Shown here in pieces: positions 5,101 through 30,775 of a stretch of DNA of 57,370 nt. Each line of letters starts with the position of its first letter. The stretch's first letter is position 1. The stretch is from a virus (lineage: Duplodnaviria; Caudoviricetes), in the IMG/VR virus record IMGVR_UViG_3300017707_001066, positions 1 to 57,370 of that record; one strand, written 5' to 3'. Made by a program: the position numbers and the translations under genes. Under the pieces are notes generated by a model. That model saw only the letters and a list, made by a program, of their open reading frames with translations. It searched no databases and was not told the DNA's origin.

Positions 5101-5543
5101 CTATCTTTTTTAGCAAGTAAATTAGCCAATCTTTTCTTAGCTCTTAATGATCTTTCATAAGCATCATTAACAAACATGTTAATAGAGTCTACTCCCTCAA
5201 GAGCATCCATGTTTTCTTTAAGAGATTGATACTGTGCTTTAAGTGCAGTCTGATTTTTTACTTTAGTTCTTTTAAGATCATTAAGCTTTCTATCTATAAA
5301 GTATTTTACTTTCTTTACTGCATCCCCAAACTCTCCTTCTTTGAGTTCATCATCAGTCTGGTCTTCCGCTTCCTCTGTTTCTTCAGGGTCGTTAATGTTT
5401 GGGTTATCTGCATAACCTTCTTCTTCCCATATCTCTAAAGCTTTTTTATACAGTTCATCTTCATTAAGAGTAGGGTTTGCATCCACTACTCTTTGATAAA
5501 CATCTTTCCATTCTTGGCTTGCTCTATTTGGACATCCTAACAT
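2148..5543 (-). CDS. Large virion ejection/cargo protein (1131 aa) with a C-terminal hydrophobic helix
   Basis: Long helical ORF directly downstream of the virion RNAP. N-terminus is MLGCPN. Hydrophobic segment ITILMSMIALITILAFMVG lies near the C-terminus. Position matches crAss-like cargo genes. Confidence 0.65.
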   Translation of the reverse strand: MLGCPNRASQEWKDVYQRVVDANPTLNEDELYKKALEIWEEEGYADNPNINDPEETEEAEDQTDDELKEGEFGDAVKKVKYFIDRKLNDLKRTKVKNQTALKAQYQSLKENMDALEGVDSINMFVNDAYERSLRAKKRLANLLAKKDRKDPKELLDELVSLNDFANGYSILDEISKEDIYKYFSNDVVEKEPGKMTPQEKLTAAIATRDNIRSKFITEAIPLISKTLIEYRSGRATERTQAEIDSLKAQINAVELSTTLSDKGRANKLAQLNKRLEQYEGYLLDENKLEQLLKQANKDEGILDYLLSPLISSDDSALALFAKMIKGSFEDARVLDEKLQREVAKEYQQFVSKIGASKDNMKELYKGIYEIIEVPKYNADGTPTLDKDGNPVVIKRPSFVQKFDMNKFRAAEKAMYDRIGPEPILSETPTPAELAALKAWKKERAQWYRTNKTAKSQEEIDKIISQKVKEKNAGIITNTEFEDWKNSNMFFNERTGTTVYIGSLSEPSSAYLNDNWKKLYDTNGNPISEQGRYHKYLTDIYLKAQEKLPEGGQMGLFIPSVPKTEMERMRDTKLGQYLKTKGKEAINIQAYDSEFGVGSLSEENVRFLPLYYTQPMDESEISFDLTRSILMFSGMANRYEAMNSMHSEISAFRTIIGDRKVLETNSKGQVMVDAIAKKLGYDEYIKKNGESNSEKHLEAFIEMVVYGESQKAEEVLGLSAGKITNTIMGISAKTTLALDLLKGVANNIGGNLQVIIEANAGEFFGKKDYLKAKAQYAKQTGSMIADFGKPVPESLIGRLSDYYDAMQGEFVDEYGKKVTGSMFNKLFRTNTLFFNQHLGEHEVQTTTMLALMNATKVIDKNTGLEISLYEAHEKYGVYVEDLEKNTDFTEKKRKDFQNELHALNKRMQGVYNEFDKATIQRYALGRLALLYRKYFVPAMKRRWKKNTFDEELGAGTEGYYITFFQTLMKDIVRYKGNIMEAWSTYTPFQKAQIRRTAAEITILMSMIALITILAFMVGSGDDEDEELKDGKIYNFILYQAIRMRSETAQYVNPGDLFRVIRSPSAVTSSLERAFKFGNQILPWNITEEYKRRSGIWEKGDSKAWAYFLKLMGFSGNNLDPAQAVKSFQSTIL

Positions 5544-17500: not shown

Positions 17501-18172
17501 TTTATCCATGTAAGGAATATTATCTTTATTTGTGAAGTTTGCTAAGTTGTGACCTACTAAACTTAAGTTCTGTCCTTGGTAACTAAATACAGTTGGATCT
17601 TCAAGCATTGAGAATGCTTTAGATAACTTATCTAGTGTATTGATTAATACTTTCTTTTCCGGATCTAATTCTTCAGGAAATAAAGCATTCTTAGTTGCAG
17701 GATCTACTGTAACAAAAGGAATCATAGTTCCTCCAAATACTATAGGAGAAGCAAACCTTGGAGAGTGGTCATATCTACCATCCTCATCATCTTCTTCTTT
17801 ACCTTCATTTTGCTCTTCATTTTTAGCACCTTCTCTAGGTCCTTCAAGATCTGGCTTAGCATATAAATCTGAGATAATTTTGGATAAGTTATCTGGATTA
17901 GAATACTCAGCAGCCTTAGAAAATAAATTAGCAATATATGCTGAAGAATCAATCTTACCCATAAAGTCAGTAATTAACTGTGAAGCTATAATAGACGGAA
18001 CTACTTGCAAAAAGTTTGCTGCATTCTCTGGGGTTGACCTTTCAGCTATCAGATTAAAAAGTTCTTTCATAAAAGAATCAGGATTAAACTCCTGACCCTT
18101 TGTTAAAAGTTCTTTATAAACTTTTTTGTATACTATAGTGATTTGGTCTTTTGTTAAAGCACAAGTTATCAT
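5537..18172 (-). CDS. Giant virion-associated DNA-dependent RNA polymerase (crAss/phi14:2 gp66-like), multidomain, 4211 aa
   Basis: GPRIP...SIILPTEIVAKSGADFDADKLF catalytic region (DFDAD at 10604-10618, aa 2519-2523). HESWH zincin motif (15542-15556). SLOG-like NHSGGAYGGD domain (~7150-7810). AlkB-like H-x-D...H...R-x5-R domain (~6445-7110). Confidence 0.85.
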   Translation of the reverse strand: MITCALTKDQITIVYKKVYKELLTKGQEFNPDSFMKELFNLIAERSTPENAANFLQVVPSIIASQLITDFMGKIDSSAYIANLFSKAAEYSNPDNLSKIISDLYAKPDLEGPREGAKNEEQNEGKEEDDEDGRYDHSPRFASPIVFGGTMIPFVTVDPATKNALFPEELDPEKKVLINTLDKLSKAFSMLEDPTVFSYQGQNLSLVGHNLANFTNKDNIPYMDKTTVAEVTKSKTLVKNRLNQPGVTQAFNRVILVVSDKDGKPIYFDENGDITTQEKGKLVYQFMKDVRIKNNRYTATDIYDTENIIKSAEEIAEKIYQPSDGDYAEFVKMIDKQQQESLKRLYNLKEEIVNTKPMQIPLTGISTGVPSYLTSSYISLKDIIKFPGMSNAVYDSIGIIKSGTAAGRAKITLNGTNFLLERPNITNELATEIAEFIVNPEIPFSIKQSYINQFIPSTIHPSLRNYALLMNPETEVVTLKIYPETGLKGVYTPYKLSNKDLKNATAQDIANIKTALYTALTEGNNGGPTKIVYAEEPRKNGKYLRYDIGTKTIGTEPYLDFLLNNVDATIDITNLDPGFYNYSLLFSQPDDILARLQKANETNYKNNADKAIQDDSDVAKVRTALIERLENGEVITGRIAKPTTTTTGFDFFDANGNKARFYNQELKITPENFAEVTEEALSTGQALNVEARLELVPELQTTEGIKYNAIAVYANDKLVGYVRESSNEQFAKKQTPVQKNTEAAIDVVEGIADPEIPTPDNDNSTVSTVVTNPGVNISDIPGWEDLQRAGYVNEILAKQVQANAKNWWENSPAGKELQKYLSLEQAANLVNSNVYAKFVLSAANLFNPTNVSSKGLLGEIQINPAKGSYVDVYHESWHAFSQLFLTKDQKFKLYDELRNYTDKNGNQPYAGKSYFELEEILAEDFRTYAKNEKPFKEAPVKTNLFRKILDFLKSIFDAIKSKFSKKEAVQDIMNIPKVKELYENLFFGRINDYTASIENVHFFELDRGIVSTTKPSKDALSKSDSDLVSESIDSFFSQKLDDIFQARKLSGDTKSLKSASIVMLVDPAKRAWMYNEAKKEFQDKLDAEKKRLGDITNFPDFNSFKSLKEVKENAVGIMKSSKGEDKYIFLKSQIQDFSSLTADNKRGDRIKGESWHEIKVVSDFYVHNKIKSGRKPISIMVVSNLSDAQVQLDNYIAGGAKQYTSIELQQLPQPALTEEQEVALDNIRILQAALDNWGDENSGVIKYHNENSDYEIGKKKYEIDTTTTDEDGNVFDESDTASVNGELSREGLAIDENKTGKLSLQQMMSKETTYILKSLFRVVDGKTVNNRLGFKERADFKKTFNIVAKAIGGISDRVEAYERLRIEANKFPEIKQLFDTKYPDPSNITNTFEFDVSKQFWLDFGNKPKVQYWQVSVFPQLTQEMNMFTQQMETKVKGFEFKTVQASLDTSTISARWEGDFKSSGKTKYIKKTADNKSVLDLEQVVKDFNKNGELTDKKDQIFAFAKAIGLNFDNVEAIKDELSANTEYYGLNYIYKIVNAFNELDRAKVAGEQLTTDQLEALEAFKQNPVNTLRSDIKAKVLNVFGNKKINQNTQIKRLIDLQAKYGYDSANLGVLRADGNRAYENMEYSTLFGRVEAINKAKSFEDLIKIPHMSYLAPGKNSFTKNGRSKLLESLFQNGNGAKIAGKSLNPIFVSGTNIENVGGTNTTDLDPIGVALQSFLSMTSAGIVELPRTSEKKSSFGIRMEGGISSNIIDNMVQKGPDQYLYVDLNMFTGAGLNGERYAIKNYLVGYIAAEFDRIKRFKSAERPELLRLTQYNREVENGLVSGELFSAFDTVLRPETKTELYALAEQQLSQDLESYLKGSNLMDKIYNDIVDYFDEKVEEEYRVYGKELDSVITDELRTKAGYTRLEKAFNESKEVTEARAYEDDLFKRRMLKAYLYNDWIHKFEVSNLFIGDFSQWDHSKGDWSKRIPGLTSGGYGYLFDEGTIKFINGDFSKSTYATSKGIPTFQFGESIRTAVVQDAERTSVYVDELKEAWKEEYEQFLSKEEAAATIAEDITAYEGMTESDGYAVMTLDAYRALHKVGRGWSTAQENLYQRIVKGEQVDPALAKQFFPIYKLHYFGAIGNAPIAATAMHKYAITPLIPNLAGTESNLDKLHMMMLKNNFQYLTFESGSKAATYISNGEVNGRADQIFTDKENKNIIDNMDSITPNEIFLAGLKEVTVINDELKKKIPIATQTRVINLDNQYSDGKIIDKDNEPIVKNYENKVAKYSDLLKEDLLNEIGYEYVEDENGNGKYKGNLKKFISVIREELGANGVPEHLLRILNTTLDGQLVTDLSLHPEADGVEKILMSIIYKRLIKQTTNGEPLVQAPTTFTNGSWDAPYDAITDPAERRKLLGSNTLAFYRRGEIDPVTGKRLATSLAKCAIPFTDNYKNLLKLKDKEGNEIGTLDKLNVLIKDDAWLAENRLSISLFGPRIPNDASNTIEALEVWHFLNPAAGNSIILPTEIVAKSGADFDADKLFLMQANLDNEGKFINKGVADFDKVYAETKQLEKDGKLPDDVLTSRQLLNKQKKFLQNEYLKASIDLLMLPNNFVYLTRPNKTYLVERYVKDLEKYSGGYDKFKNTHNVPANKSKDGKKNVLSPTRMLEVGYNRYVHDANLSLNKSLGIQAKRTKNHVLNKVLGAKFPTTYKKIAWNPITNSPEETDIDFNFKMRFPHNTVTINGKEHISLGNERNKNGDRITDINSHNLNGILDRAKNPFPFVLKMVPQAMNVINDMIEAGVPQETVYYFVNQPIIAKYINDQRKFDSSYAFIFEGGQASAKTKAINSIMSRVVNNVDEADLTGITQEANIRHLKDVLNSLYKADKNAVYEVTIGRDTTLNRTVDQIVNSIKKGEVKIEYISKIGTVAEEDQIQLFPYRWTANLASDSLYYYAAEILSKQYFPKGQIELEDLKESLETGGKDVLKQLAYFLNFIELEKQGEGMNGLQILSTGDTVKLSTVQQVNKREDALAALTGKSKIDQEFLDNFKNKSILSSFNQTQLIKDLIVPLMPLRLNEVISNYIADALKYKARMIKNTYGAGVKGQEYFTTKFNNAIMDFIYQNYKSNFVDADGQLTNVPDNYAGKKVRIDNNSPEDVVVKPNEIIVNTKLLEQDFNTKAYLVTNVTDRGYTSRGLDVFTPKQNPFKTVNEYYRYAIEREVLIATLPESVEQDKTFQKYLQKYKDGNAAFFAYVSDTALRNTFNPAYIMGTTKYSYTESLLEMLTEMRQSVKLVADYPIINQLSKARLRGNFSIVEFADKNNAKGAVATNYKRQISQLADPTIKKVEDPIENARISKMFQDFSAMMFFQHGVGKTTFGFPKILEVETFMKDMTEASLNFQRNYMSDNTLNMIFNRLIKDKRVPVKTYGVSLEAYNEVTPLPQEEFEEEFEWEEGEKAPQQTGTISAEASEYTNHSGGAYGGDTYWDIIGREFGVINHKHYREASNASLAAQLRKAGVKAEVLTKEQMDTARAEVEKLLGEKYPDTTEGNLKVRNYYQVANADAVYAIAELTTTTDKSNPNLTDSTKSKYGYLLNKVKGGTDVAVQLGIKLGKPVYVWDLNNRSWFKFNGKEFEQVNTPILTKNFAGVGSRDIESYSIKDRDGNWVPRPQYRGQDVEEAAKQAIRDVYENTFKTAEPTATPKGEEVKPGIYVNQGALTKEEQLELFNYLKPFIEEQGARTLKSASASKMIGLGLRWDYTDNNRGRQAVNIPDKIVNNPKYGYYTESINGQSLGEISSRFRELMQKASGVDMTNYDGAIINIYKKDTFINSHNDVDESRSAINYPVIGVNLGGDGNFSIERLGPQNETLNLQPGTGYIFGLNGVNREVWHRTFPTPQNSFLPTLTTKIDGETYPAGSYRVTITMRRVMPIEPGMPTSPSMSPMSSPQDDPSSLQQDLAILQADLRNYQELQEKAYQNNNNIIVALAMPKITPSSAMKETGIKTGVGKDINSALLSNSGLSVTQAAHQIMENEFYEESGRAPIDEQEIRNMIIDILQIGKENYISEYNYQSDINRILSEIQDVEAKIRDEEGGVEKNSIQIDHVPRFKEAFIANGNQLPEVFDAVPGKSVWARNSKTNLYDLVSTDGTVLMENVSMIQGRVVETGKSKKPVSQRKKQDDLKNLRSIANDLEMNFIIAAKGYDINEFISKLEAAETQTEYNEIMSKIRELLC

Positions 18173-21100
18173 TACTTACAAGTTAAATTTTCTAACAATT
18201 CTTTATCAATCTTATCCATTGATTGTTTTTCAGCAGCAGCTTTTGCATCAGCCATACCATTAAGATCATTTTTTAAGAAGTCATTAAGTACTTCTGTAGA
18301 ATATTTTGCAAGATCTTTTTCATCCTTAGTAGGCTTATAAGTGGTTGCATTATCACTTGATCCATCAAGTACGTCTTTTAACATATACTGTTCATTAAAT
18401 TGATCCAATCCTACTGTATAAGGCTTTGGTCTTTTACCACCATCCTTGACTAGTGTTACCGTATTATCTTCAGTATTATAAGAAACAACTCTTACTTTAC
18501 CTCCTTCTCTAATATACGGATTTTTTTGCTTTTCACTAGTAAAGATATTAGTTTTAGCCTCATAAATGTCACCTTTTTGGATATTAGTTTCATTCATTAT
18601 AGGTAATTCATTGTTAGCTATTTCCTGTTCTCTTTGTGCAAGTAAACTGTTTAAATTATTTATACCTTCTGAAGTAATAATTAAGTCATCACTGATAGCT
18701 TCATTAAGCAATTTTCTAGCTTTCTCAATATCAGTTGCAGTACTAATTTCTTTAGTTAAGTTAGCTACTGTAGTTGGGTCATCTAACTTACCTTCTAAAC
18801 CTTCTTTTGCAATGATATCATCTCTTAAAAGCTTAAGGTCTTCAATCTTAATCTGGAGTCTTTTCTTCTCATCAGTTCTTGTATACCTTGCTTGCTCTTT
18901 AGCAGTAAGCTCACTGATAACTTGGTTAGCTTGTTTAATAGCAGTTCTTGGTCTACCATTATTAGCTTCAAAGTTTATACCCTCAACAGTAGCTATGAAG
19001 TTTTGAGTTTCACCTAAGAATTTAGTATTACCCATCAGAGTAAAGATTTGTCTTTGATAATCTGACAATTCTTTAATCTCTGTATTATCAGTACTTTGTG
19101 TTTTAAGGTACTGAATTCTTTTTACAGCCTCATGGATTAATTCAGAATAAGCTCCCATAGTAGGTGCTAAACTTTTTACTTCAGCTGCAGTAACAATACC
19201 TGATTGTTTTAATATATCTACGGCCTCTTCTTGACCTGTTGTCGGAGAAGATGTGCTTTCTGCAATTCTTTCATGGAAAGAAAATCTTTCAGCAAATGGA
19301 GAATCTTTCTTGAGCTCTTCTATAATAAAAGGACTATTGTCATCAAGATCAATATTAGCAAAGGATACGGTATTAGCTAAAGGTACAAGTGAAGCTTTAA
19401 GATCTTCAATTGTTTTCTTAGCTGCTTCTTCAGTATTTCTGTACTTATTAATGATGTTCTCATATGCTGAAGCTTTAGGAGTATTAGCTGCAGGTGGTTG
19501 TAATTCTTGTCCATTTAGAGCAGGAAGTTCTGAACCATCATCATTCCATTCAAAGTCTACTTCTTCTTCATCATCTGCTAATGGTCTTGTAGGAGCAGCT
19601 TTTTTCTTAAGTGGAAGTATCTGGTCTAACTTATCTTTGTATGCATCAGGATACAAAGGAATAAACATACTACTCTTTGTTTCTGATTCATCTACATCAA
19701 AGTCAATGTCTCCTGCTTCAGTAACTACATAATTACCATTATCATCTTTAGGGAATAGTAATTGTTTGTAAATAGTTTCTGTTGTAGGTTTACCAGCTTT
19801 AATAATCTGATTAGTTTCTTTATTAGTAACTCTTTGAACAGGAAGTAATGCTACTTTAGCTTTTACACCAATCATGTTCTCTAACATTCTAGCATAAGCA
19901 CCTTGCTGTAAAGTATAGTTTTCTCTTTTTGAGAAATACTTTTTAGTAGCATTCTTTAGTCTATTAACTTTATTAAAGTTATTCCACTTAGTTTCACTAC
20001 CAGTTTTAAGGTCTACAATAAAGATATTACCTTTTCTGTCTGCCATAACAAGGTCAATCTCCCCGGCAATTCTATCTTTAGAACCATCAGGCTTAGTAAT
20101 ATCTGAATCATATACTACAAGACCTCTACCTACAATATAAACTTCTCTATCATCTACTCTTCTTTTAAGCTCAGTAAGATACCCTGTTTCACCAAAGAGG
20201 TTGTCATATGCTTCTCTAGTAATAATCTTCTCATCAAACTCTGGCTTAATACCTTTTTCAAAGTAGTCTTTAGCATCATCTACAAAGTTTCCTACAATTC
20301 TACCATCTTCATAAGATCTTTCTGCAGCAAACTTTTGAATAAGCTCTCTTGTAGTATCAGAAGAAGCTATATCTTCAACTGCTAATTGATCTACAATAGA
20401 TTTTACTTTATTAATATTTTGTTCTACTACAGTTCTTGTATTAGGTAACTCATTATCAATAGGAGTTAAATCTTTATTTATAAAGTTATCTATATGATTA
20501 CCTTTTCCAGGGACTTTTGGAACATCCCATTCTCTAATATCTCCAATATTTATATCTAGTTCTTGTGATAGTGCTTTTAAAATAGGGCTACCATAGTAGT
20601 CATTTATTTCTTGGCCGGATAATTTATTTAACCAACCTTCATCACTGATGCCAAAAATCGGATACCATTTACCTGAGGTAACATCAACTTTACCACCACT
20701 ACCTGTAGATAGATAGAATGGAACATTAATACCATTTACTGAAAGGACAACAATTTTTCTACCATTATAATCAATTATATCTGAAGTACCTTTAAGATAT
20801 TTTTTACTACTAGTAGCATCATCCCATACAACAGTATCATAATCAATAGCTAATCTATTCTTTACAATATCTGCAGCTAATTTGGTGTTTTTAGGAGACT
20901 GTGCTCGTTCTAACTCAACTTCAAGATCTTGTTTTTGCTTAGTAAGTAGAGCAGCTCTTTTAGAGTTATCATCTGCATATGCCGCAGCAATCTTCTCATC
21001 AAGCTTGGCTAAATTCTTATTAATCTTATCAACATAAAGTTCCTGATCAATCTGAACTTTTGATTTACCTTCCAAGCTTTCTACAAACTGTTCTAACTCA

Positions 21101-24100
21101 TCATATAGTTCACTGTTAAAACCATCTAGTTCTTCAGCTCTAATCTGAGCCATGAAGTTCATTGCAGATGTTTTGTTTAAACCATCTTTACCAATAGTTT
21201 TATTAAATATTGTATCAATGGTTGGGGCAGACTTATATGTATAGTCTTTACTTTCTACATCACGGATAGCATTAGTAACTCTTCTATGGATAAGACCTTT
21301 AATTCTATAAGCAATGTCTCCTTTTTTAAGTCCGGTAGTAGGGTCATCTTCAGTAAGCATGTAGCCTTCTTCAACACCCTCTTGTTGCTTAATAAGATTT
21401 TGTATAGCTTTAATAGATTTCTTCTGTTCAGGAGTATAACCTTTTAAAGTCATAGCATCTATGATCTTCTCAATGTTGGCTACTTCTACATTGAACTTTT
21501 TAATCTGCTCAGTGAGTTGTTTCTTTTCTTCAGCATCTTCAGATAAATCTTTAGCTTGTTGAAGAGCTTTAATTCTATCATTAATAAGATCCTGATAAAC
21601 TCTTAAGTCTTTGATAGACTTACCTTTAGTACTAATAGTGTTACCTTCAAAAGTAAAAGTATAGTCAGACTTTTCTTCATCTGCTGCTGCAGTTTTGTCT
21701 TTCTTGAACTGTTCTTCTACTCTTTGTTTTTCTTTATTGTACTTATTAGTAATCTTTTCTACTTCTTTAGGATCAGGCATTCCTGTTTCAGGATCTTTAG
21801 GTAATGCATCTATGTCAGCTTTCATGTCAGCATCAAGCTTATCCATTTTGCTTTGATACTCCTTGTTTACAAACTCAGATTTAGGTTTCTTAACCGTCTC
21901 TCTAAGTTCTGCCATCTTAACAAAGTACTCACGGTATATTTGGTTATACTCTTCAGTACCTCTTTTGTAGACTTTATTAGTTGCAGCATTAAATATTTCA
22001 GTTGGAGGAGTATTGTTATTTACATACTCCTGGAAGTCTTCAGCACTAATAAACAATGCTTCATCTGCTAAAGCATTTAAAAGACTGTTCATCTCTACTT
22101 TAGTGATCTGATCTAAGATCATTTTAGTATAGTACTCTTCTCTATTATGATAGAGTTTATCCATCCATTCCGAGTTTCTTTGAACTAGGTCAATAAAATT
22201 CTCAGGGTTGTTTAAAGCTTCTACATACTTAGCAACTTCTTTATACTCATCATTAAGTTTATAGAAGTCTAGTAGTTGCTCAAAGCCAGCATCTAAGTCT
22301 TCATCAAAAAGAATCTCATCTTGCTCAAGGCCTAAAGTTTTTAAGTACTTGTGATGAGAATCTCTAAGTGATTTAATATATGGTAATGCTAAGTTCTCAT
22401 CACTAGATGAACCAAGTTTCTGATCCATTCTCTCAATAATTTGTTCTTGAGTTGGTTCAGCACCTAATTCTTTTTTAAGTTCAGCAATGATTTCTCCAGC
22501 ATATTGACCACGGCTAAAGAATCTGTTAAACCCTTCATAAGCTTCAGAGTAAGACTGTAATGAAGCAATCTTATCTTCTAAAGATTTAATTCTTTTTGCA
22601 TTAGGTTTTGGACTAGCTTTTTCAGCAGCCAATTCTGTTTCAAATAAACCTACTTGATTAATTAAAGCATCCGGTTTAAAGATAGCTGTAGAATCTGTAC
22701 TATTTAGAACATTAAACCCTTTACCTTGTGTATACTTAGTTTTAATTGAAGTTAACCTAGATTTTACATCTTCAAATGTTTCATTAAAGTATACAGCATT
22801 ATTTACTGCTTTATTCCAAGCATGGTATGTTAATGCTTTACTGTGATAGTCTGGATCATTTTCATCCAAAGACATTACATCAATTGGATTAGGGTACTTA
22901 CTTGTATAAGCTTTTTTCTTAGCTTTTACAGAATCTAATTTTTGTATAGACTGATCTATTCTGGATTTATACTTAGGAATTTCTTCTTGAGCAATACCAC
23001 CCATAGCATCCATAAACTCATCATCCGTCATTTCTTTGAATGATCCAAGTTTATCTTTAAACTGATCAACAGTACCAGTTTCCATCATGAAAGAAACACT
23101 GTCTACAAAAGCTTGATTCTCTGCATCAAGAGCTTCTTTCTTTGTACCTGTTCTTTTAATTTGAGCAGCAATATCTTGTGCACCTAAATTGTAAACATTA
23201 TCTGATAAAAACTCTCCAATTTTTACATCATTGAGTTGCTTAACTAAGTTTGAAGCAATATTTTCTTTATCAGTTTTCCATTTAGTATATGCTTCTTTTT
23301 TAAAGATTCTATTATACTGTACACTTAAGAAAGGAATAGCACTATTAACTGGGGCAGCAAATGTACCCATTAAAAAACCAGATGCAAATGTTTCAAGACC
23401 TTGTCCTGAAAACTGCTTACCTAATTCTTCTCTAAAGTAATCACCTCTTTGTCTAGCAAGACTATCTTTAATTGCAGCTTTAGAATACTCATAGCTTGAT
23501 CTAGCATCAGAACCAAATGTATCAATGTAATATCTCTCATTAGCTCCTGCAATAACTTCCTGTAAGTTTTCTTGGATACCTTCAGAGAAGTTAGCCTTAA
23601 AGTATTTTACAGTACCTAATGCCGATTTGCTAAGAGGATCTCTATACCAGCTTTTAGCTAAGTTTTTAAGATTGTTTTTTTCAAAAGCAAAAGCTTTTGT
23701 AGTTTTATCATAAACTACTTTACCAAGTTTACCGAACTTACCACTCTCATATTTAGCAATATCATCAGTAACTGATTTTAAATAGTTGCGGATACCACCT
23801 CTTGGTCCAGTAATATTATCAAATGTAATTTTATTAGATAGGTATATAAGTCCGGTGTTTAAGTATAGAGTACTTAAAGAAGCTTCCTTAGCTTGTTTTC
23901 TAAATTCATACTCATCTTTATCTGTAGGTGCAACACCAGTTGCTTCATAGTGCTTGTTATATAGTTCATCAAACACTTTGTTTTCATTCATACCAGCCTC
24001 AAGTCTAGCTTCAGATAAAGCCATGTTAAGGTTTCTAACATCACGATAGAACCCTCCAGCAGTCTTGGATATTTTAGCTAAGTTAGTTAAGTTATCTACT

Positions 24101-25098
24101 TTAGATAAACCCCCTAAAGCATCCATAGTATTCTCTAATGGATTCAATACTCTTCCTAGATTACTTCTTAATCCAGCATCTGCAGCTTCCCAAAACTTTC
24201 TTGCTTCAGGTAAGTTACTAAATGTCTTAAGACTTTGACGTAATGCTTTGGCACCATCGGTTACCATACCAAAGCCTCTAAATATTTTACTAGCTTTATT
24301 TACATTATTAGCAGTTGTAAATGCAAAACTTGCTCCACCAGTAATTGGAGCTAAAACAGCTCCTGCAATTTCTTCTACCACAGCTTCTCCAATGATACCT
24401 GCAGTATAACCAAAGTTCATTAAAGTATTGTTGAAGAAACTACCAAAGCCACCTTTAGTAGACTGACCTATAGCTGCAGCTTCTTCATACAATCTAGCAT
24501 CTTCTAAGTCAGCACTTGTAAAGTCCCCTTGAATCATTTTGGCTAAACTCTTAGGTCCAGACCAAAAACCATTCTTTAATAACGGAACAAATGAATGTGT
24601 AAGCATTCTATTAGCATCATCCCACCAAGTGGTTGCAGCATTAAAGTTTGCTTCATTATTTTTAAGTGGGTGAAACCCTACTTTATCAAAAGTCTCTTGA
24701 CCATATGCTGCATATCTTTTATAGAATGCGTTTCCGGATGGACCAGAATCATAAGAGTATATTTTTCCATATACATTCTGATCTTGATTGGCTTGGTATA
24801 AAGAGTTTATGTATGCTTCATAAGAATCTCCAAAATCTTTTGGGCTTGCTTTTGGATTTGGTCCTGGAGCATTGGGAGCATTACCTACTACATTATCTCT
24901 AATTGCTCTGTTAGGTAAATCTGCTTTTGGTTGTGGGTATGCAGGATAGTAAACATCTGGAAAATTAATAGATTGTGGTCTAGGCATTCTTCCTTCAAAA
25001 GGAGAAAGACCTTGTGAATCTAATACAGGTCTATTAATTTTTCCAAACTCTGGACCCAATGAATCCAGAGGATTAAATACTTCAGTTTCTTCTGCCAT
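18172..25098 (-). CDS. Large virion ejection/cargo protein (2308 aa) with an internal PD-(D/E)xK nuclease-like domain
   Basis: IAGEIDLVMADRKGNIFIVDLKTG...YTLQQGAYARML motif (~19880-20075), a Gly/Ala-rich hydrophobic N-terminal region and coiled coils. TAATG coupling to the RNAP gene. Confidence 0.7.
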   Translation of the reverse strand: MAEETEVFNPLDSLGPEFGKINRPVLDSQGLSPFEGRMPRPQSINFPDVYYPAYPQPKADLPNRAIRDNVVGNAPNAPGPNPKASPKDFGDSYEAYINSLYQANQDQNVYGKIYSYDSGPSGNAFYKRYAAYGQETFDKVGFHPLKNNEANFNAATTWWDDANRMLTHSFVPLLKNGFWSGPKSLAKMIQGDFTSADLEDARLYEEAAAIGQSTKGGFGSFFNNTLMNFGYTAGIIGEAVVEEIAGAVLAPITGGASFAFTTANNVNKASKIFRGFGMVTDGAKALRQSLKTFSNLPEARKFWEAADAGLRSNLGRVLNPLENTMDALGGLSKVDNLTNLAKISKTAGGFYRDVRNLNMALSEARLEAGMNENKVFDELYNKHYEATGVAPTDKDEYEFRKQAKEASLSTLYLNTGLIYLSNKITFDNITGPRGGIRNYLKSVTDDIAKYESGKFGKLGKVVYDKTTKAFAFEKNNLKNLAKSWYRDPLSKSALGTVKYFKANFSEGIQENLQEVIAGANERYYIDTFGSDARSSYEYSKAAIKDSLARQRGDYFREELGKQFSGQGLETFASGFLMGTFAAPVNSAIPFLSVQYNRIFKKEAYTKWKTDKENIASNLVKQLNDVKIGEFLSDNVYNLGAQDIAAQIKRTGTKKEALDAENQAFVDSVSFMMETGTVDQFKDKLGSFKEMTDDEFMDAMGGIAQEEIPKYKSRIDQSIQKLDSVKAKKKAYTSKYPNPIDVMSLDENDPDYHSKALTYHAWNKAVNNAVYFNETFEDVKSRLTSIKTKYTQGKGFNVLNSTDSTAIFKPDALINQVGLFETELAAEKASPKPNAKRIKSLEDKIASLQSYSEAYEGFNRFFSRGQYAGEIIAELKKELGAEPTQEQIIERMDQKLGSSSDENLALPYIKSLRDSHHKYLKTLGLEQDEILFDEDLDAGFEQLLDFYKLNDEYKEVAKYVEALNNPENFIDLVQRNSEWMDKLYHNREEYYTKMILDQITKVEMNSLLNALADEALFISAEDFQEYVNNNTPPTEIFNAATNKVYKRGTEEYNQIYREYFVKMAELRETVKKPKSEFVNKEYQSKMDKLDADMKADIDALPKDPETGMPDPKEVEKITNKYNKEKQRVEEQFKKDKTAAADEEKSDYTFTFEGNTISTKGKSIKDLRVYQDLINDRIKALQQAKDLSEDAEEKKQLTEQIKKFNVEVANIEKIIDAMTLKGYTPEQKKSIKAIQNLIKQQEGVEEGYMLTEDDPTTGLKKGDIAYRIKGLIHRRVTNAIRDVESKDYTYKSAPTIDTIFNKTIGKDGLNKTSAMNFMAQIRAEELDGFNSELYDELEQFVESLEGKSKVQIDQELYVDKINKNLAKLDEKIAAAYADDNSKRAALLTKQKQDLEVELERAQSPKNTKLAADIVKNRLAIDYDTVVWDDATSSKKYLKGTSDIIDYNGRKIVVLSVNGINVPFYLSTGSGGKVDVTSGKWYPIFGISDEGWLNKLSGQEINDYYGSPILKALSQELDINIGDIREWDVPKVPGKGNHIDNFINKDLTPIDNELPNTRTVVEQNINKVKSIVDQLAVEDIASSDTTRELIQKFAAERSYEDGRIVGNFVDDAKDYFEKGIKPEFDEKIITREAYDNLFGETGYLTELKRRVDDREVYIVGRGLVVYDSDITKPDGSKDRIAGEIDLVMADRKGNIFIVDLKTGSETKWNNFNKVNRLKNATKKYFSKRENYTLQQGAYARMLENMIGVKAKVALLPVQRVTNKETNQIIKAGKPTTETIYKQLLFPKDDNGNYVVTEAGDIDFDVDESETKSSMFIPLYPDAYKDKLDQILPLKKKAAPTRPLADDEEEVDFEWNDDGSELPALNGQELQPPAANTPKASAYENIINKYRNTEEAAKKTIEDLKASLVPLANTVSFANIDLDDNSPFIIEELKKDSPFAERFSFHERIAESTSSPTTGQEEAVDILKQSGIVTAAEVKSLAPTMGAYSELIHEAVKRIQYLKTQSTDNTEIKELSDYQRQIFTLMGNTKFLGETQNFIATVEGINFEANNGRPRTAIKQANQVISELTAKEQARYTRTDEKKRLQIKIEDLKLLRDDIIAKEGLEGKLDDPTTVANLTKEISTATDIEKARKLLNEAISDDLIITSEGINNLNSLLAQREQEIANNELPIMNETNIQKGDIYEAKTNIFTSEKQKNPYIREGGKVRVVSYNTEDNTVTLVKDGGKRPKPYTVGLDQFNEQYMLKDVLDGSSDNATTYKPTKDEKDLAKYSTEVLNDFLKNDLNGMADAKAAAEKQSMDKIDKELLENLTCK

Positions 25099-25109
25099 TA
25101 TAAGTATTA

Positions 25110-28028
25110 TTAATATCTACCGTTGTAAATATCTGAATTGTATTGGTTCAGATAATCCCAGGAGTCAATTGTTTGTTGTCTAAAAGTTTCCAAGTTGTTT
25201 CCTAAAACACCGGTATTATTTCTGATAGTCTTAATATCATATTGTCCTGTTCTAGGATTATAGATAGGTGCTGCAGTTGTAACAATAAAGTCTCCTGTAC
25301 CAAGATTATTTTTTTCAACTGTAAAAGACTTTCTTGGGTCTCTTGGATCTTGATATGTATAAGGACCTACAGCGTCAACATAAGATGCTAATGGAGAAGA
25401 GAATGAATTTTGGTAAAGATCATTTTCTAACTTATCACTATCCATAAAGAATGTAATACCATTTTTAACTGCATTAATATATTCAGCTTGAGAAAGTAAA
25501 TTATCTGTTCCTTCCTCATTACCCTTGTACTGTTTTAACCAAGCAGCAGAAGGATGGAAAGTAACAGCTGATTTACCAAATTTGTTAGCTGCAATAGAAT
25601 TAACAGAAACTTCAAACATATCCATTTTAGATTTAGGATTTTGCATACTGTTTCTTATTGCATTAAGCATTGCTAGACCAACATCTCCTTTTTCTGTAGA
25701 TGCGCTATTAAATGCACTACCACTAATACCACTAAAGCTTACTCTATCTGAACTTGTATCAAACTTACCAAAAATATCATTGGCAACATTGTTAAAGATA
25801 TACTGACTCTTACCACTCTTAGGGTTAATAGTAATTGCAGTTGATCCCATTGTAAATAGGCCTGTACCTTCATCCATCATTCCAGGAGGTACTCCAGGTA
25901 ATTTATTAATAGCTGGTTTAATTACTTTAGTATTAGAATAAGCACCATGAGCAGCTTGACGTATGTCTTCATATTTAACATCTTTTTTCCAATCTGGTTT
26001 AGACACATAAGTGTTACCAGAAGTTCCCATTGTTAGAGATGAACCTGTACTAACGTATAAAGGTGTACCGCTTGGTTTATTTTTTTCTCTAACAGTATTA
26101 GGTAAAGCAGCATAAAATTGATCTTTACTTCTCATTTTACCTTTGTCATCAAAAAGATATTTAGCATATTTAAATCCATTTTGCTCTAAATTTTTAACTA
26201 CAGCTTTAGAAGATTTAATTGCCCATTGTTCATTAGCCTTTAAGTAATTATTATAATCATTAAATACTAATGATGATTTAGTATAGTTTTTAAACTCTTG
26301 TCCTTTAAGAATAGAACTTCCTGCATTATTACTTACCCAACTATTAAATTTACTTTGAATTTTAGCAAGATCTTTATGTCCAATATCATTTTGTAAAAAG
26401 TAATAACCATACTTATTAAGTTTATCAGAGAACTTCTGACGGCTAATATTCTTATAGTTATTGTGACTAAATATCTGGCTTGCTTCTTTCTCAGTCATCT
26501 GACCACTAGCAACAAGTTTATCTACCATTACAGTCATGTTTTTCATAAATGGTATACCAACATTTTCAGCATGTTGTTTTGCAATAGTCTTACTTACCAT
26601 TCTGTAATCAACTTCATCAGTTACATTTCCTTTACCTTCTGATTTAACGTAAGTGTGTTCCTGATTTTCATAAGGTACAATATTACCTTGCTCATCTTTA
26701 TAAGCTTCACCATTGTCAAGTTTTTTCTGATCACTTTCAGCTTTAACTTTAAATGCTTCTGTAAGTCTAGCTTGTTCTCCGGTTGCAGCAATTTCAGCCA
26801 TTCTTAACTTATGCTCTTGTTCATTAACTGCATATGGGTTAGCTTCCATATCAATCTCAGCATTAGTGTAAGCAAAGATGTTAGCAGCTTCAGCTAAGTC
26901 TTTTTGCATAAGAGTAGATGCCATACCATTATCTACTTTCATCCTTAAAGTTTTAATATCTCCATAAGGATTTTTAAAACCAGAAGAAGTACTAGGTGTA
27001 GATGATTGACCATCATCAAGCATTTCTGCAGATTGTTTTGCTCTTTCAAGATTCTTATTATTAACATCTCTGTTCATTTTAAGATTCTCTAATTGAGCTT
27101 CTGTATCTGGATCAGCTGTACCGTCTTTAATTTGTTTTTCTAAGTCAGCAATCCTAGCATCATAAGCTCTAGACTGTTGTTGCATACCCTTATAACGGGC
27201 CACACTTTGTTGTTTAAGAACATTAAAGCTATCCTCTAGGTACTTCATTTCAGCAGCATTCTCATCACCACCAAACATAGCAGCATTAGTCTTAGCATAT
27301 GACTTTCTATCTACATAAGCTTGTGTTGCATATACTTCTTGCACCCTAGGATCTGATCCTAATGTAGCTTCAAACAAATTACTAAGTGGTTCAATTAAGT
27401 TTTGACCATTCTTAGTTTTAATAATCCACTCACCATTCTTACCACCAAACTCAATATTTTCTACAGATAGTCCAGCTTCTTTAGCAATCTTTTGTGCTTC
27501 TTTAACAGTATTTACATATGGTGTATAAGAAGCATTACCAAAGCTAGCAGCTTCACCTGCTGTAGCATTTTTAAATTCTTCTCTTTGAAACTCTAGTGCT
27601 TGTACACCTGTATCCCAATACATAGAATTTCTTTCACCATCAGCAGAACCTTTGAAGGCCATTGCTTTATTGATCTGGCTTCTATAGTTCTTTGTCCAAG
27701 CCATATCTTTAACAAGATCTTTATCTTCATAGAATGGTTTGAACACCTGGGTTGCTTGAGTAACATTTTGCTCAAGAGATAAATCTAACTGAGAAACTCT
27801 TTTTAGATTAAATTCTATATCCTTCAGATGCTTGTCTCTTTTTTCAATATTATCATCCCGTGTAAGTTCAGCATTATAGTACTGACCATACATATTATTA
27901 AGAGCCTTCCAGTTTGTATCATACTGTGTTTGCTTAGTGCGTAACACATTATCATAGAAATTTAAGTCAGGCTGAAAAGGCTGATAGTCTGGAATAAAAT
28001 CTGTTACACCCTGGAGATAAGTAGCCAT
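25110..28028 (-). CDS. Probable virion ejection/cargo protein (972 aa)
   Basis: Long ORF with coiled-coil segments. It is the first gene of the giant-gene block. N-terminus is MATYLQGVTDFIPDYQPFQPDLNFY. Confidence 0.6.
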   Translation of the reverse strand: MATYLQGVTDFIPDYQPFQPDLNFYDNVLRTKQTQYDTNWKALNNMYGQYYNAELTRDDNIEKRDKHLKDIEFNLKRVSQLDLSLEQNVTQATQVFKPFYEDKDLVKDMAWTKNYRSQINKAMAFKGSADGERNSMYWDTGVQALEFQREEFKNATAGEAASFGNASYTPYVNTVKEAQKIAKEAGLSVENIEFGGKNGEWIIKTKNGQNLIEPLSNLFEATLGSDPRVQEVYATQAYVDRKSYAKTNAAMFGGDENAAEMKYLEDSFNVLKQQSVARYKGMQQQSRAYDARIADLEKQIKDGTADPDTEAQLENLKMNRDVNNKNLERAKQSAEMLDDGQSSTPSTSSGFKNPYGDIKTLRMKVDNGMASTLMQKDLAEAANIFAYTNAEIDMEANPYAVNEQEHKLRMAEIAATGEQARLTEAFKVKAESDQKKLDNGEAYKDEQGNIVPYENQEHTYVKSEGKGNVTDEVDYRMVSKTIAKQHAENVGIPFMKNMTVMVDKLVASGQMTEKEASQIFSHNNYKNISRQKFSDKLNKYGYYFLQNDIGHKDLAKIQSKFNSWVSNNAGSSILKGQEFKNYTKSSLVFNDYNNYLKANEQWAIKSSKAVVKNLEQNGFKYAKYLFDDKGKMRSKDQFYAALPNTVREKNKPSGTPLYVSTGSSLTMGTSGNTYVSKPDWKKDVKYEDIRQAAHGAYSNTKVIKPAINKLPGVPPGMMDEGTGLFTMGSTAITINPKSGKSQYIFNNVANDIFGKFDTSSDRVSFSGISGSAFNSASTEKGDVGLAMLNAIRNSMQNPKSKMDMFEVSVNSIAANKFGKSAVTFHPSAAWLKQYKGNEEGTDNLLSQAEYINAVKNGITFFMDSDKLENDLYQNSFSSPLASYVDAVGPYTYQDPRDPRKSFTVEKNNLGTGDFIVTTAAPIYNPRTGQYDIKTIRNNTGVLGNNLETFRQQTIDSWDYLNQYNSDIYNGRY

Positions 28029-28030
28029 GG

Positions 28031-28666
28031 TTAAATATATTTAAATGTTGTTTTGTTAGCTCTTTTACCAGATAATTTTCTACTTAGAGTACTTTTTGTA
28101 ATATTTAATACTTCACATAACTCAGCTAAAGAATTATATACAATATTTGTAGTTGTATCTATAATTTTTTTACCTTTTTTTAGTCTATGCACTTTTTTAA
28201 AATCTATAAGTTCTCTTGATCTTTGTAATAATTCTTTATGCTCTGGTGAAAGAGTTCTTTCTTTAAGTTTTTGAATACAAAGTTCTGATGGTTTTTGACC
28301 TTTATTAGCAATTCTTAGTTTTTCCTTTGTTTCTTCAGAGTGTATAGAATTTCCATTTGGGTCTGTCGGTTTTAGATTATAACCAATTGTTCTATCTAAG
28401 CAATTAAGTTCATTAACCCAGTAGTGTTCTTTAGCATGTAAATCATTTATATCACATTTTTCAACTATTTCAAAAACAAAGTTTTCTTCACCATACTTAA
28501 TCCATGCTTTTTGTAAATAACTATTATGATGTTTATTTTGTCTTAGATCATAGAGATGACCATTTATTCTAGTTCTTACATTAGAGGCACAACCAATATA
28601 TATCTTACCACTAGCAATACTAGTAATCTTATATATTCCGGGATTTGATTGTAAGTACGTTGCCAT
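28031..28666 (-). CDS. Free-standing GIY-YIG homing endonuclease with NUMOD3-like and C-terminal HTH (NUMOD1-like) motifs
   Basis: GIYKITSIASGKIYIGCASNVRTR, HHNSYLQKAWIKYGEENF, GYNL, HSEETKEKLR and YNSLAELCEVLNITKSTLSR. Confidence 0.9.
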   Translation of the reverse strand: MATYLQSNPGIYKITSIASGKIYIGCASNVRTRINGHLYDLRQNKHHNSYLQKAWIKYGEENFVFEIVEKCDINDLHAKEHYWVNELNCLDRTIGYNLKPTDPNGNSIHSEETKEKLRIANKGQKPSELCIQKLKERTLSPEHKELLQRSRELIDFKKVHRLKKGKKIIDTTTNIVYNSLAELCEVLNITKSTLSRKLSGKRANKTTFKYI

Positions 28667-28684
28667 ATTAGTATCTTTCTTATT

Positions 28685-28716
28685 TAAATATATTAAAATT
28701 TTTTAAGTTTAATAAA
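28685..28716 (-). promoter_or_regulatory. Putative late promoter (TTTA-N20-TATATTTA)
   Basis: One of five intergenic copies of the same bipartite motif, upstream of the gene start at 28666. Confidence 0.55.
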
Positions 28717-28729
28717 CTTATAAGGTTTA

Positions 28730-30775
28730 CTAAGGGGTAACTATAGGAAACACAGAGTAAACATAACCTCCATTCTTAAAGGTTGTACCACCAAATCTTT
28801 TACCATACATGGTTTGGAAAATAGCAGTTTGCATTTCAGGTGTAAGGCCAGCTTCTTCTAATTGTTGAGCATAAGCAATAGCATCTTTTTGTGCTTGTCC
28901 CGGATCTACTTGTTTATCAGTAGGAGTATAATTTACCCAGCCACCCATAGAAGGATCCACTTGATAATTAGGATATAACTGATTAAGAGCATCTGTCTTA
29001 GTCATATTAGTAAGAAGATTCTTTTTAGCTTCTCTTGTTATTTTTCTAGCCTGTCTCTTAGAGTTATCATATTGATTTCTTGCAATAGCAGATCTATCTA
29101 AGTATTGTTGCTCAGATGCAGCATCCATACCTCTTTCTTGATTCTCTAAGTCATTGACTTTATACTCATGTTGTTGGCCGGCTCCTTGGTTCATAGTATT
29201 ATACTGATTACCAATAGTAGCAAGTTGTTCTGCAAACTGACCAGCCAATTGACTTTGTCTTGCACTAGCTTGTCTAGGGTCTCCTGCAAACTCACCAAAA
29301 TATTTACCACCTGTGATTTGGTTATACAATGCGGTAGGGTCAAAGGTATGTAGATCTGGTTTAACTAAATCTACATCAGTACGTTGAGGAAGATATTTAT
29401 TAATACTAGCTTGATCTATTGCAGCTCCTGTAACATCCATAACATCTTGTAACCATGGACCACTTCTTTTTCTTGGAGGAGTCATACCCATAGCACCAGA
29501 TTCAGTACTTCCTTCAGAACCATCAGGACAATCACATTCTTCACCAGGCATAAGAGCTCTTGTTACTTCTTTTCCAGTTTTTGGATCTACACAAGTACAA
29601 GTATCCATTGAGCTATCACCAGGCGGTTCTTCTAACTGTAAGAAGTCAACTTCTTCTTTTCCTGGAGTAGCTGACTCACCTTTCTTAATACAGTCTGCAA
29701 ATTGAGATGTTAAACCAGCTACAGTACCATGTCCTTGTGAAGCAAGTTCTTGCGGAGAAACACCTTTAGATAACTGATTACATATGGTATCTCTCCAAGC
29801 TTGATTAGGTGCACCTGTTCCAGGTTTTGCTTTTCCTAACGTACTACTAGCACTTCCTGGAGTAATTGAACCTTTTGCACATGTGCCATCTGCTAACTTT
29901 ACATATCCTGGAGGACAACTAGTACCTTTTTCTTTTCTGATATTCTCAGCTTTCTTTCTTCTCTCTTCAAGTTCAGCTTGAGTAAGAGCTCTTTGTCCAC
30001 CACCATCTTGAAAAAATCCACCGTAAGCAAACTCTGGATAAAAACTACCCATCTCCATACCATACTGCGCCATCATTTCTGGTGTAGCAATAGGAGCTCC
30101 ACTAGGCATTTGTTCTGGCATATCTTGTTGTGGTACTTGCTCTTGTGGTTTTGGTGGCATGATATCTTCAGGTGAAATACCTTTAGCTTCTAAAGCTGGT
30201 TTAGCAATTTCTGGAATGCCTTGTTCAAATCCTTTCTTAGATTCTTGTACTAATGCAAGTTCTCCTAATTTAATTACAGCATTCTTAATCATAAGCTCTG
30301 CTGTTTTTTTAGAAATATTATCTGAGTTAGGGTCTCTAAGAATTTTTACATATTGATTAAGACCAAACTTCTTAGAAATTTCTGCTGGAGTATAACCTCC
30401 TTGTTTTGGAGATAATCCAAATCTTTTTAGAACAGCAGGATCTTTTATCTTCATTGATCTAGTATCACTAAAGATAAAACTTTCATCAGGTAGATTTAAT
30501 GGAACACCACCTTCTGTATGTCTTGGTCCTTGAATTTTATAAAATGCTGGAATGCTTCCTGTATTTACTACAGCAGTTTCTCCACCTTCCGCTTCTAAGT
30601 TTGCGTCTTCTCTTGGTACTGCACCAATAGATTCTTTAACCTCAGGTTCTGGAATACCAGATTGTCTAGCATAGTCACCACCACCCCATACAGAAATATC
30701 ATTCATTAATGAACCATTAACTTGATATCCAGTTCTGGCTTTAGGAATTGCTTTGATTTTAACTCTTCTTAACAT
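28730..30775 (-). CDS. Putative virion protein (681 aa) with xxGG motifs
   Basis: Conserved-looking N-terminal domain ANLEAEGGE...GPRHTEGGVPL, a Q/P-rich linker, a Cys-containing insert, and FAYGG/FQDGG/KRFGG/FKNGG motifs. Confidence 0.6.
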   Translation of the reverse strand: MLRRVKIKAIPKARTGYQVNGSLMNDISVWGGGDYARQSGIPEPEVKESIGAVPREDANLEAEGGETAVVNTGSIPAFYKIQGPRHTEGGVPLNLPDESFIFSDTRSMKIKDPAVLKRFGLSPKQGGYTPAEISKKFGLNQYVKILRDPNSDNISKKTAELMIKNAVIKLGELALVQESKKGFEQGIPEIAKPALEAKGISPEDIMPPKPQEQVPQQDMPEQMPSGAPIATPEMMAQYGMEMGSFYPEFAYGGFFQDGGGQRALTQAELEERRKKAENIRKEKGTSCPPGYVKLADGTCAKGSITPGSASSTLGKAKPGTGAPNQAWRDTICNQLSKGVSPQELASQGHGTVAGLTSQFADCIKKGESATPGKEEVDFLQLEEPPGDSSMDTCTCVDPKTGKEVTRALMPGEECDCPDGSEGSTESGAMGMTPPRKRSGPWLQDVMDVTGAAIDQASINKYLPQRTDVDLVKPDLHTFDPTALYNQITGGKYFGEFAGDPRQASARQSQLAGQFAEQLATIGNQYNTMNQGAGQQHEYKVNDLENQERGMDAASEQQYLDRSAIARNQYDNSKRQARKITREAKKNLLTNMTKTDALNQLYPNYQVDPSMGGWVNYTPTDKQVDPGQAQKDAIAYAQQLEEAGLTPEMQTAIFQTMYGKRFGGTTFKNGGYVYSVFPIVTP

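Follow-up and report, generated by a model that had tools for sequence, protein, structure and literature searches.

Probable invasion of a phage gene at its 5′ end by a homing endonuclease element, free of intron and intein, that carries a spare gene start

The virus record IMGVR_UViG_3300017707_001066 (Duplodnaviria; Caudoviricetes), analysed here as one stretch of 57,370 nt and called the window below, holds a gene for a GIY-YIG homing endonuclease that appears to have invaded a large protein-coding gene at its 5′ end, with neither intron nor intein, and that would have brought with it a replacement for the gene start that it took over. We give this reading a probability of about 80%. The element would consist of a start-less GIY-YIG gene, a stop codon and a spare start for the host gene, the latter being an ATG with codons 2–6 and probably also codons 7–8. 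Homing endonuclease genes are usually said to persist in essential genes by means of introns or inteins, or else to sit between genes.

All features of the locus lie on the minus strand. Positions 28666–28649 read ATG GCA ACG TAC TTA CAA and open an open reading frame (ORF) of 211 amino acids (aa), located at 28666–28031 and closed by a TAA at 28033–28031. Two bases, CC, come next and then an ATG at 28028, from which ATG GCT ACT TAT CTC CAG (28028–28011) opens a 972-aa ORF at 28028–25110. Both starts encode the hexapeptide MATYLQ, with none of the five non-Met codons (5/5) alike and 6 of 18 nt different; the coordinates and codons given for this pair in the initial annotation matched exactly when re-read on the minus strand. 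We refer to the first start (28649–28666) as the upstream copy, which we take to be the native ATG with codons 2–6 of the host gene, now serving as the first six codons of the endonuclease, and to the second (28011–28028) as the downstream copy, i.e. a replacement ATG with codons 2–6 that seems to travel with the endonuclease.

The insertion could be defined by comparison with relatives of the 972-aa protein. A search of viral contigs with the host protein gave 16 loci; with a profile made from nine relatives there were 123 matches, and the best 80 were retained. Among these best 80 of 123 host-gene loci, 69 had no ORF abutting the start (one of them, L164, retaining a remnant of the endonuclease), 9 had a GIY-YIG gene and 2 had an HNH-like ORF. 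The empty alleles displayed a conserved AT-rich block and a short lineage-specific leader, leading directly into MATYLQGVTD with codons like those of the upstream copy, as had been predicted for relatives devoid of the endonuclease. The closest relative, L001/L098, was empty, with a host protein 71% identical to that of the window (87% over residues 11–330), and its first 18 nt agreed with the upstream copy of the window at 18/18 nt. When aligned with L098, the window had one extra block of 638 nt, exactly after codon 6. This inserted segment (28011–28648) is made up of endonuclease codons 7–211 (615 nt), the stop codon (3 nt), the two bases CC (2 nt) and the replacement start (18 nt).

We furthermore compared five pairs of empty and occupied alleles (L015/L011, L115/L128, L007/L014, L165/L171 and L151/L156), with flanks mostly 75–100% identical per 50-nt bin and 90–100% identical in the closest pairs. 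In four of the five pairs the upstream copy and the empty allele had the same sequence, the fifth pair showing one base of difference, and the leader was identical over its last 50–84 nt in 4/5 pairs; in a wider comparison, 11 of 13 distinct pairs had an upstream copy within 0–1 nt of the nearest empty allele. Beyond the right edge of the insert, codon 7 had a different wobble base in 5/5 pairs and codon 8 in 4/5, while two pairs had only 0–2 differences over the next ~90 nt. Since it is the upstream copy that agrees with the empty allele, whereas the downstream sequence differs, the former should be the native start and the latter, together with codons 7–8 (28005–28010, probably co-imported within a short co-conversion tract), the imported one. 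An insertion after codon 6, as originally proposed, is thus borne out by the L098 alignment and by all five pairs. The capture of the host start agrees with the match of both leader and first 18 nt to close empty alleles, and there was no earlier ATG in frame.

The same pairs displayed two further patterns. Roughly 100–300 nt upstream of the start (equivalent to ~28770–28970 of the window), identity fell to 60–82% in four pairs that are otherwise 90–98% identical (L015/L011, L115/L128, L007/L014 and L165/L171). This stretch is the 3′ end of the upstream gene, and the identical 50–84 nt separate it from the insertion; it may encode a hypervariable tail of the 681-aa protein or reflect patchy conversion linked to the endonuclease. 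In addition, Thr3 of the native start is encoded by ACG, which accounts for 2% of the Thr codons in the long genes of the window and is nevertheless the commonest Thr3 codon in empty alleles (26 of 44 distinct), which suggests a nucleotide-level constraint on the native start region.

The endonuclease gene itself (28031–28666 including the stop codon, in frame with the captured start) matched the GIY-YIG family of Pfam, PF01541, with an E-value of 4.4e-9 and 37 bits (cut-off 22.6), and PHROG 314, ‘homing endonuclease’, at 3.3e-37, and was the sole GIY-YIG match within the 57-kb record; the score for NUMOD3, a candidate for a separate DNA-binding module at the C-terminus, was 17.1 bits, under the cut-off of 20.4. 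All 13 distinct endonuclease relatives were intact. Invariant among 13 distinct sequences were G10, I11 and Y12 of the GIY motif, Y23 and G25 (Y-x-G), R31, R33, H37, E80 and N97, which we take to correspond to the catalytic residues of I-TevI, and the most variable part was the three residues separating MATYLQ from the GIY motif. The open frame ahead of that motif contains no ATG other than the native start of the host gene, and the endonuclease must thereby depend on that start. Among cultured phages no close relative of the endonuclease was found, all 288 matching records being below 60% identity.

Searching with the endonuclease protein, we obtained 251 relatives and retained the best 80. 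Of six peptides used as probes, one, MATYLQSN, biases the result towards this site, and the other five were internal. The 21 closest relatives (57–85% identity, full length) were all found at the same site, all began M[A/S]TY[L/I]Q and all had the junction after codon 6. In 20 of the 20 with a complete endonuclease gene the host gene restarted with M[A/S]TY[L/I][Q/S/T]; in the remaining one, L029, the gene runs to the contig end. The recurrence of the hexapeptide in 21 further viral contigs makes chance an inadequate explanation for the MATYLQ shared by two neighbouring genes. The distance from stop to restart, counted over the 20 complete relatives and the window, was +2 in 10 cases, −1 (TAATG) in 9 and −4 (ATGA) in 2, and residue 5 was alike in both copies (L/L or I/I) in 13 of 13 distinct pairs. 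Beyond this site, 59 loci with distant homologues (31–47% identity) were inspected, with 22 distinct combinations printed, and in none of them did the endonuclease start with MATYLQ or copy the start of its neighbour; these homologues began instead with ordinary short N-termini such as MKSGIY or MTCGIY. The initial annotation had named endonucleases beginning with MATYLQ at unrelated loci as an observation that would speak against it, and none occurred among these 59. A candidate generalization, that distant relatives of the endonuclease use the same device at other genes, was dropped, with no example in the 59 loci or in the annotated phages cr56_1 and Fpv1.

Further comparisons bear on the mobility of the endonuclease. 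Among 13 distinct occupied alleles, DNA identity in the N-terminal half of the endonuclease gene (nt 19–400) exceeded that in the first 900 nt of the host gene in 78/78 pairs, and it exceeded that in the upstream flank, again in 78/78. Between the window and L018, the initial 400 nt of the endonuclease gene were 97–100% identical in each 100-nt bin (99% over nt 19–400), with values of 71% for the host gene and 63% for the upstream flank. Seen from the contig, window positions 28267–28648 are near-identical to L018, whose flanks are 45–72% identical.

The C-terminal half of the endonuclease fell into two classes. In one of them the proteins have 211 aa, the junction is +2 and codon 2 of the downstream copy is GCN; in the other the proteins have 213–214 aa, the junctions overlap and that codon is AGT. 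C-terminal halves reassort freely with N-terminal halves, the N- and C-terminal identities being 99% and 74% between the window and L018, and 87% and 94% between L018 and L019. The type of the downstream copy tracked the C-terminal class in 13/13 distinct alleles, and the sister hosts L159 and L167 carried different C-terminal classes together with different downstream copies. The proposal that the replacement 5′ end travels with the endonuclease is therefore supported, as the downstream copy follows endonuclease class and not host lineage. On a FastTree phylogeny of host residues 11–330, occupancy required at least 10 changes. This tree comprised 87 rows, including 16 occupied ones; L172 was left out owing to its short length, and the branch leading to L037 was very long.

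Other public sequencing runs contained the same arrangement. They included a 547-nt piece identical to the endonuclease gene and an occupied arrangement at ~92% identity; run X3 had a 628-nt piece across the restart and the endonuclease gene, run X4 a 1438-nt contig across the whole region, and run X23, probably DNA, one 192-nt contig within the endonuclease gene. Empty-allele joints in other runs omit 28011–28684 and have a native-type 18-mer instead. More broadly, 20 of the 24 listed runs contain 30–46% of sampled words from a 1.2-kb stretch, four runs having been compared at contig level; no RNA run was found to contain the stretch. These word counts, together with the near-identity to L018, would fit a near-identical catalytic-domain module that circulates widely in freshwater phages and recombines at the domain boundary.

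How such an element might work can be outlined as follows. Transcription and translation would start at the native signals of the host gene, with the AT-rich block as the presumed promoter, and the endonuclease would thus have the host MATYLQ as its own N-terminus. At the endonuclease stop codon, ribosomes would restart at the next ATG and make the full host protein with its N-terminal peptide unchanged; the stop–restart junction, TAA-CC ahead of the ATG (28029–28033), would probably provide translational coupling. In mixed infections, as the comparative pattern suggests, the enzyme would cut empty alleles of relatives in or near the conserved first ten codons, whereupon repair from the occupied allele would copy the endonuclease gene together with the spare start. 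The occupied allele itself would escape cutting, its site being split and the rebuilt copy a diverged allele. Later deletion of the endonuclease gene would leave the imported start behind, and the first ten codons would thereby become a hot spot of variation.

This last step has support in existing alleles. In L164, what is kept of the AT-rich block is followed at once by the final ~35 nt of the endonuclease gene, the stop codon and a downstream-type start, a layout that marks a deletion scar in which the downstream ATG is the only start; the same start sequence occurs in L019/L159, from a different host clade. In one endonuclease-free lineage (ten loci with a near-identical leader), the first 30 nt of the gene had 8.3 mean pairwise differences, compared with 1.2–3.7 in ten neighbouring 30-nt bins (−60 to +270). 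L135 and L112 differed over ~290 nt by one base in the leader and eight further changes, all eight within codons 2–9, and the L135 start is one base from a downstream copy known in occupied alleles. Repeated invasion, each time followed by deletion between the two short repeats so that the imported start is left behind, appears to be the simplest reading of these patterns, and selection to escape cutting may add to the variation at the start. The idea that recoding serves to avoid such deletion is weakened by the same observations, given that deleted alleles exist (L164, and empty alleles with downstream-type starts) and as such speak against strong protection.

The architecture described above is also compatible with an explanation in which the two copies came to differ in their codons as a neutral by-product, with a foreign or long-separated downstream allele hitch-hiking with the endonuclease, and we regard this as a serious contender that falls somewhat short of even odds. 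The complete synonymous recoding reported in the initial annotation held for the window but not beyond it, the window being the only one of 13 distinct pairs in which all five codons differed synonymously; in the other 12 distinct pairs 2–4 codons differed, and an amino acid was changed in 10 of the 12. With the codon usage of the window, all five codons would differ between independent alleles with a probability of 0.025, or 0.061 with the upstream copy fixed, and such values, with full recoding in 1/13 pairs, are in line with a by-product. The two copies differed at 4–7 of 18 nt, with a mean of 5.6 over the 13 distinct pairs, which is near the mean of 4.6 for random distinct empty 18-mers (Mann-Whitney p 0.016, the pairs being non-independent); empty alleles with the common GCA codon 2 had a mean of 2.9 differences. 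The case for recoding as a design is thereby weakened. Identical runs of up to 9 nt moreover persist between the two copies and deleted alleles exist, both to be expected of a by-product, and a divergent clade natively starts with the Ser (AGT) of one downstream class, as in L179, so that the AGT-type downstream copies may derive from such a lineage.

Against neutrality stands the codon 2 usage, with 12 of the 20 distinct empty 18-mers but 0 of 13 downstream copies having GCA (Fisher p 5e-4), as well as the finding that downstream copies change the amino acid at positions 2 and 6, where empty alleles hardly ever vary; the sharp hot spot of variation at the target would likewise be expected under conflict with the endonuclease. 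The comparisons thus establish, at the level of sequence, that a diverged allele is carried along with the endonuclease; its divergence may have been selected for immunity or against deletion. Two further candidates arising from the codon comparisons were discarded. Val8 encoded by GTA appeared to be a mark of occupied alleles in a comparison of 4 occupied with 13 empty loci, but the downstream copies have GTC in 6, GTA in 5 and GTG and GTT in 1 each; and L037, with a very divergent host gene, looked like a case of codons 1–10 carried into a foreign gene until its empty relative L179 was found natively to read MSTYLPGVTD.

An alternative view of the architecture itself holds that a free-standing endonuclease gene landed between promoter and start, with the downstream copy being native and the upstream MATYLQ gained later by local duplication. 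Intergenic landings do occur at this site, as demonstrated by the HNH-like genes, with their own N-terminus, that lie between the same block and the start in 2 of the 80 loci (L103 and L168). The present gene is unlike the classical intergenic type of phage endonuclease gene, as it has no start of its own and sits inside a reading frame, and the upstream copy matches the empty allele in all five pairs (identically in four, with one base off in the fifth), the downstream copy tracks endonuclease class and not host clade, and 21/21 relatives share the junction after codon 6. We consequently find a landing of this kind improbable.

The HNH-like genes deserve a description of their own. They are located at L103:1504–1998 and L168:1501–1998 (corresponding to 28667–28029 of the window), encode 164–165 aa, are unrelated to the GIY-YIG gene and lie between the same intergenic block and the host start, 2 nt before the ATG. 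By eye they have an HNH-type motif region and an AP2-like C-terminus, making this a candidate family assignment, and host residue 7 is N, not G, in both alleles. Their presence at this site makes it a hot spot for two endonuclease families.

Less probable still is the view that a group I intron or an intein was inserted here and is excised, with the second MATYLQ being irrelevant. Many phage endonuclease genes of the GIY-YIG family are indeed intron-borne, according to the accessible parts of two accounts (PMC2988022, PMC10448857), but Rfam, searched over positions 27500–29200, yielded 0 matches at E≤1, and coding sequence takes up 636 of the 638 inserted bases, which leaves no room for a ribozyme core. 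An intact restart with the host N-terminal peptide was present in 20/20 complete relatives, the deleted allele L164 uses the restart alone, and an intein is excluded by the stop codon. The absence of an intron that had been proposed from the start thus appears well founded, with only two inserted bases being non-coding. The remaining alternative, an assembly artefact or chimeric contig in a metagenome-derived record with an estimated completeness of 48, is barely credible, as the same arrangement was found in 21 other viral contigs and in contigs of other runs (X3, X4).

Some points nonetheless weigh against the reading that we favour, or narrow it. Part of the similarity of the endonuclease DNA could reflect constraint, although constraint cannot explain 99% versus 71% identity. 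Several contigs are near-duplicates, and the counts given refer to the best 80 of 123 host-gene matches and the best 80 of 251 endonuclease relatives. The promoter role of the AT-rich block is inferred from its position and conservation. Codons 7–8 change variably, from GGA GTA to GGT GTC in one pair and from GGT GTC to GGC GTA in two others, and this lack of one consistent sequence would fit co-conversion of donor markers better than a specific immunity mutation. The two copies have diverged modestly more than random empty alleles (5.6 versus 4.6), and immunity by recoding stays conjectural. The lack of splicing and the translational coupling are read from the sequence, and cleavage and homing are predicted. 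The 972-aa protein, finally, had no Pfam match, no tblastn match in cultured phage records and none in PDB using the family profile at E≤0.1.

With regard to the control region, the original host-gene leader, which now precedes the endonuclease gene, lies at 28667–28684 as judged from empty alleles, and the AT-rich intergenic block ahead of it, a putative promoter, at 28685–28712. This block occurs once in the window when allowing up to 3 mismatches, versus 0 expected, and it precedes the start in empty and occupied relatives alike (16 loci and the 80-locus set). Exceptions were L164, which keeps part of it, and loci whose displayed upstream stretch lay inside the endonuclease or HNH gene. A sigma-70 scan was uninformative, with 8 sites versus 5.9 expected, and a terminator scan found none. 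At 28713–28729 on the minus strand, immediately following the stop codon of the 681-aa gene upstream, a short hairpin can be drawn, with arms AAACYT / ARGTTT; it was seen at the same place in L001–L016 and L098–L177, with the AT-rich block coming next, and judged by eye it appears to keep its pairing despite changes on both sides across lineages.

The host gene (25110–28028) encodes a conserved 972-aa protein with 123 relatives in viral contigs by profile search, its single short match to PHROGs being to a family of unknown function. It sits in a block of very large genes (4211, 2308, 1807 and 1173 aa), next to neighbours matching ‘virion structural protein’ PHROGs, and a feature search of the Atlas gave a weak lead from the host protein to crAss cargo protein 2 (score 0.90). 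That it is an essential virion gene, as first suggested, is plausible. The first ten residues are kept even in a clade with 43% identity to the host protein of L037, which makes them a good target. Directly downstream, also on the minus strand, lie ORFs of 4211 aa (5537–18172) and 2308 aa (18172–25098), and residues 1640–1754 of the 2308-aa protein contain a weak PD-(D/E)XK or exonuclease-like stretch that stays under the Pfam cut-off (PHROG 298, 2.5e-6).

Taken as proposed here, the locus would extend the logic of gene-end replacement to freshwater phages, mirrored to the 5′ end of a gene and shrunk to 6–8 codons. It comes with a natural experiment, in which 22 contigs are occupied, dozens of alleles are empty, one bears a deletion scar and some empty ones have a downstream-type start, and its 30-nt target hot spot allows direct tests of target recognition, of immunity by synonymous change and of translational coupling. 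There are also two warnings for annotation, in that a short N-terminal peptide common to neighbouring genes can mark an insertion of this kind, and that an endonuclease can drive variation within the opening codons of a conserved gene.

Among known systems, the seg and mob endonucleases of T4-type phages are the agents of ‘intronless homing’; as described in the accessible text of one account (PMC2988022), they are intergenic, begin at a start of their own and cleave at sites hundreds of bp distant. The element proposed here resembles them as a phage GIY-YIG gene without an intron, with sporadic occurrence, co-converted flanking markers and expression through host-gene signals (PMC2988022), and is unlike them in lying inside a reading frame and sharing the start codon of the host, so that a new start must be brought. 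Another comparison is with endonucleases that split genes, in the available descriptions mobE in Aeh1 nrdA, mobA at T4 gene 39/60 and a seg-like gene at gene 43 of Aeromonas phage 25 (PMC2988022, PMC3045599). There, as presumably here, a free-standing endonuclease gene is found within an important phage coding region and neither RNA nor protein splicing is involved, but in those cases the host protein is made as two reassembling pieces, whereas here it would stay whole, with a short 5′ end being resupplied. Work on ICP1 phages, in the portion of it accessible to us, treats interrupted genes as intron or intein cases (PMC10448857).

Still closer in logic are the mobile endonuclease ORFs of fungal mitochondria, which carry a foreign C-terminus, with examples in Allomyces atp6 and in Glomus atp6, atp9, cox2 and nad3 (PMC3630166, PMC6279837, in the parts available); the native copy there matches close relatives and the differences are largely synonymous (PMC3630166). 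Judged from those parts, the features in common are an in-frame endonuclease ORF with a duplicated and diverged gene end, of which the inserted copy is foreign. The present case would be an N-terminal mirror image, with a far shorter duplicate, a native copy reused by the endonuclease, and a virus of bacteria as its host. Full-text literature searches, which covered few subscription journals, found no 5′-end case and no phage case of gene-end replacement; as far as they reach, this solution has been described for the nuclear WHO elements of yeasts and for these mitochondrial ORFs of fungi.

The WHO elements of Torulaspora yeasts, finally, combine a LAGLIDADG endonuclease gene with a replacement 3′ half of FBA1 and are placed by their authors, in the accessible portion of the report, in a third category of homing elements beside introns and inteins, with an arms race at the target (10.64898/2026.08.13.744650). 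As far as that portion goes, the phage element would share with them that the end of the host gene is restored by an allelic variant, not by splicing, and that the target region diversifies. It differs in that the 5′ end is concerned, with 6–8 codons instead of half a gene, and in that the displaced native end provides the start and N-terminus of the endonuclease, whereas in WHO elements it is a dead fragment; here, moreover, one message with a stop–restart junction is presumed, the enzyme is of the GIY-YIG type, the host is a phage and the system is known from its sequence. With odds that we judge slightly better than even, it represents the first viral, prokaryote-associated homing element of the third category and a new 5′ form of it, in which promoter, start and six codons are captured, a spare start is read by stop–restart, an arms race of invasion and deletion turns the first ten codons, deeply conserved in other respects, into the most variable part of the gene, and the halves of the endonuclease reassort.

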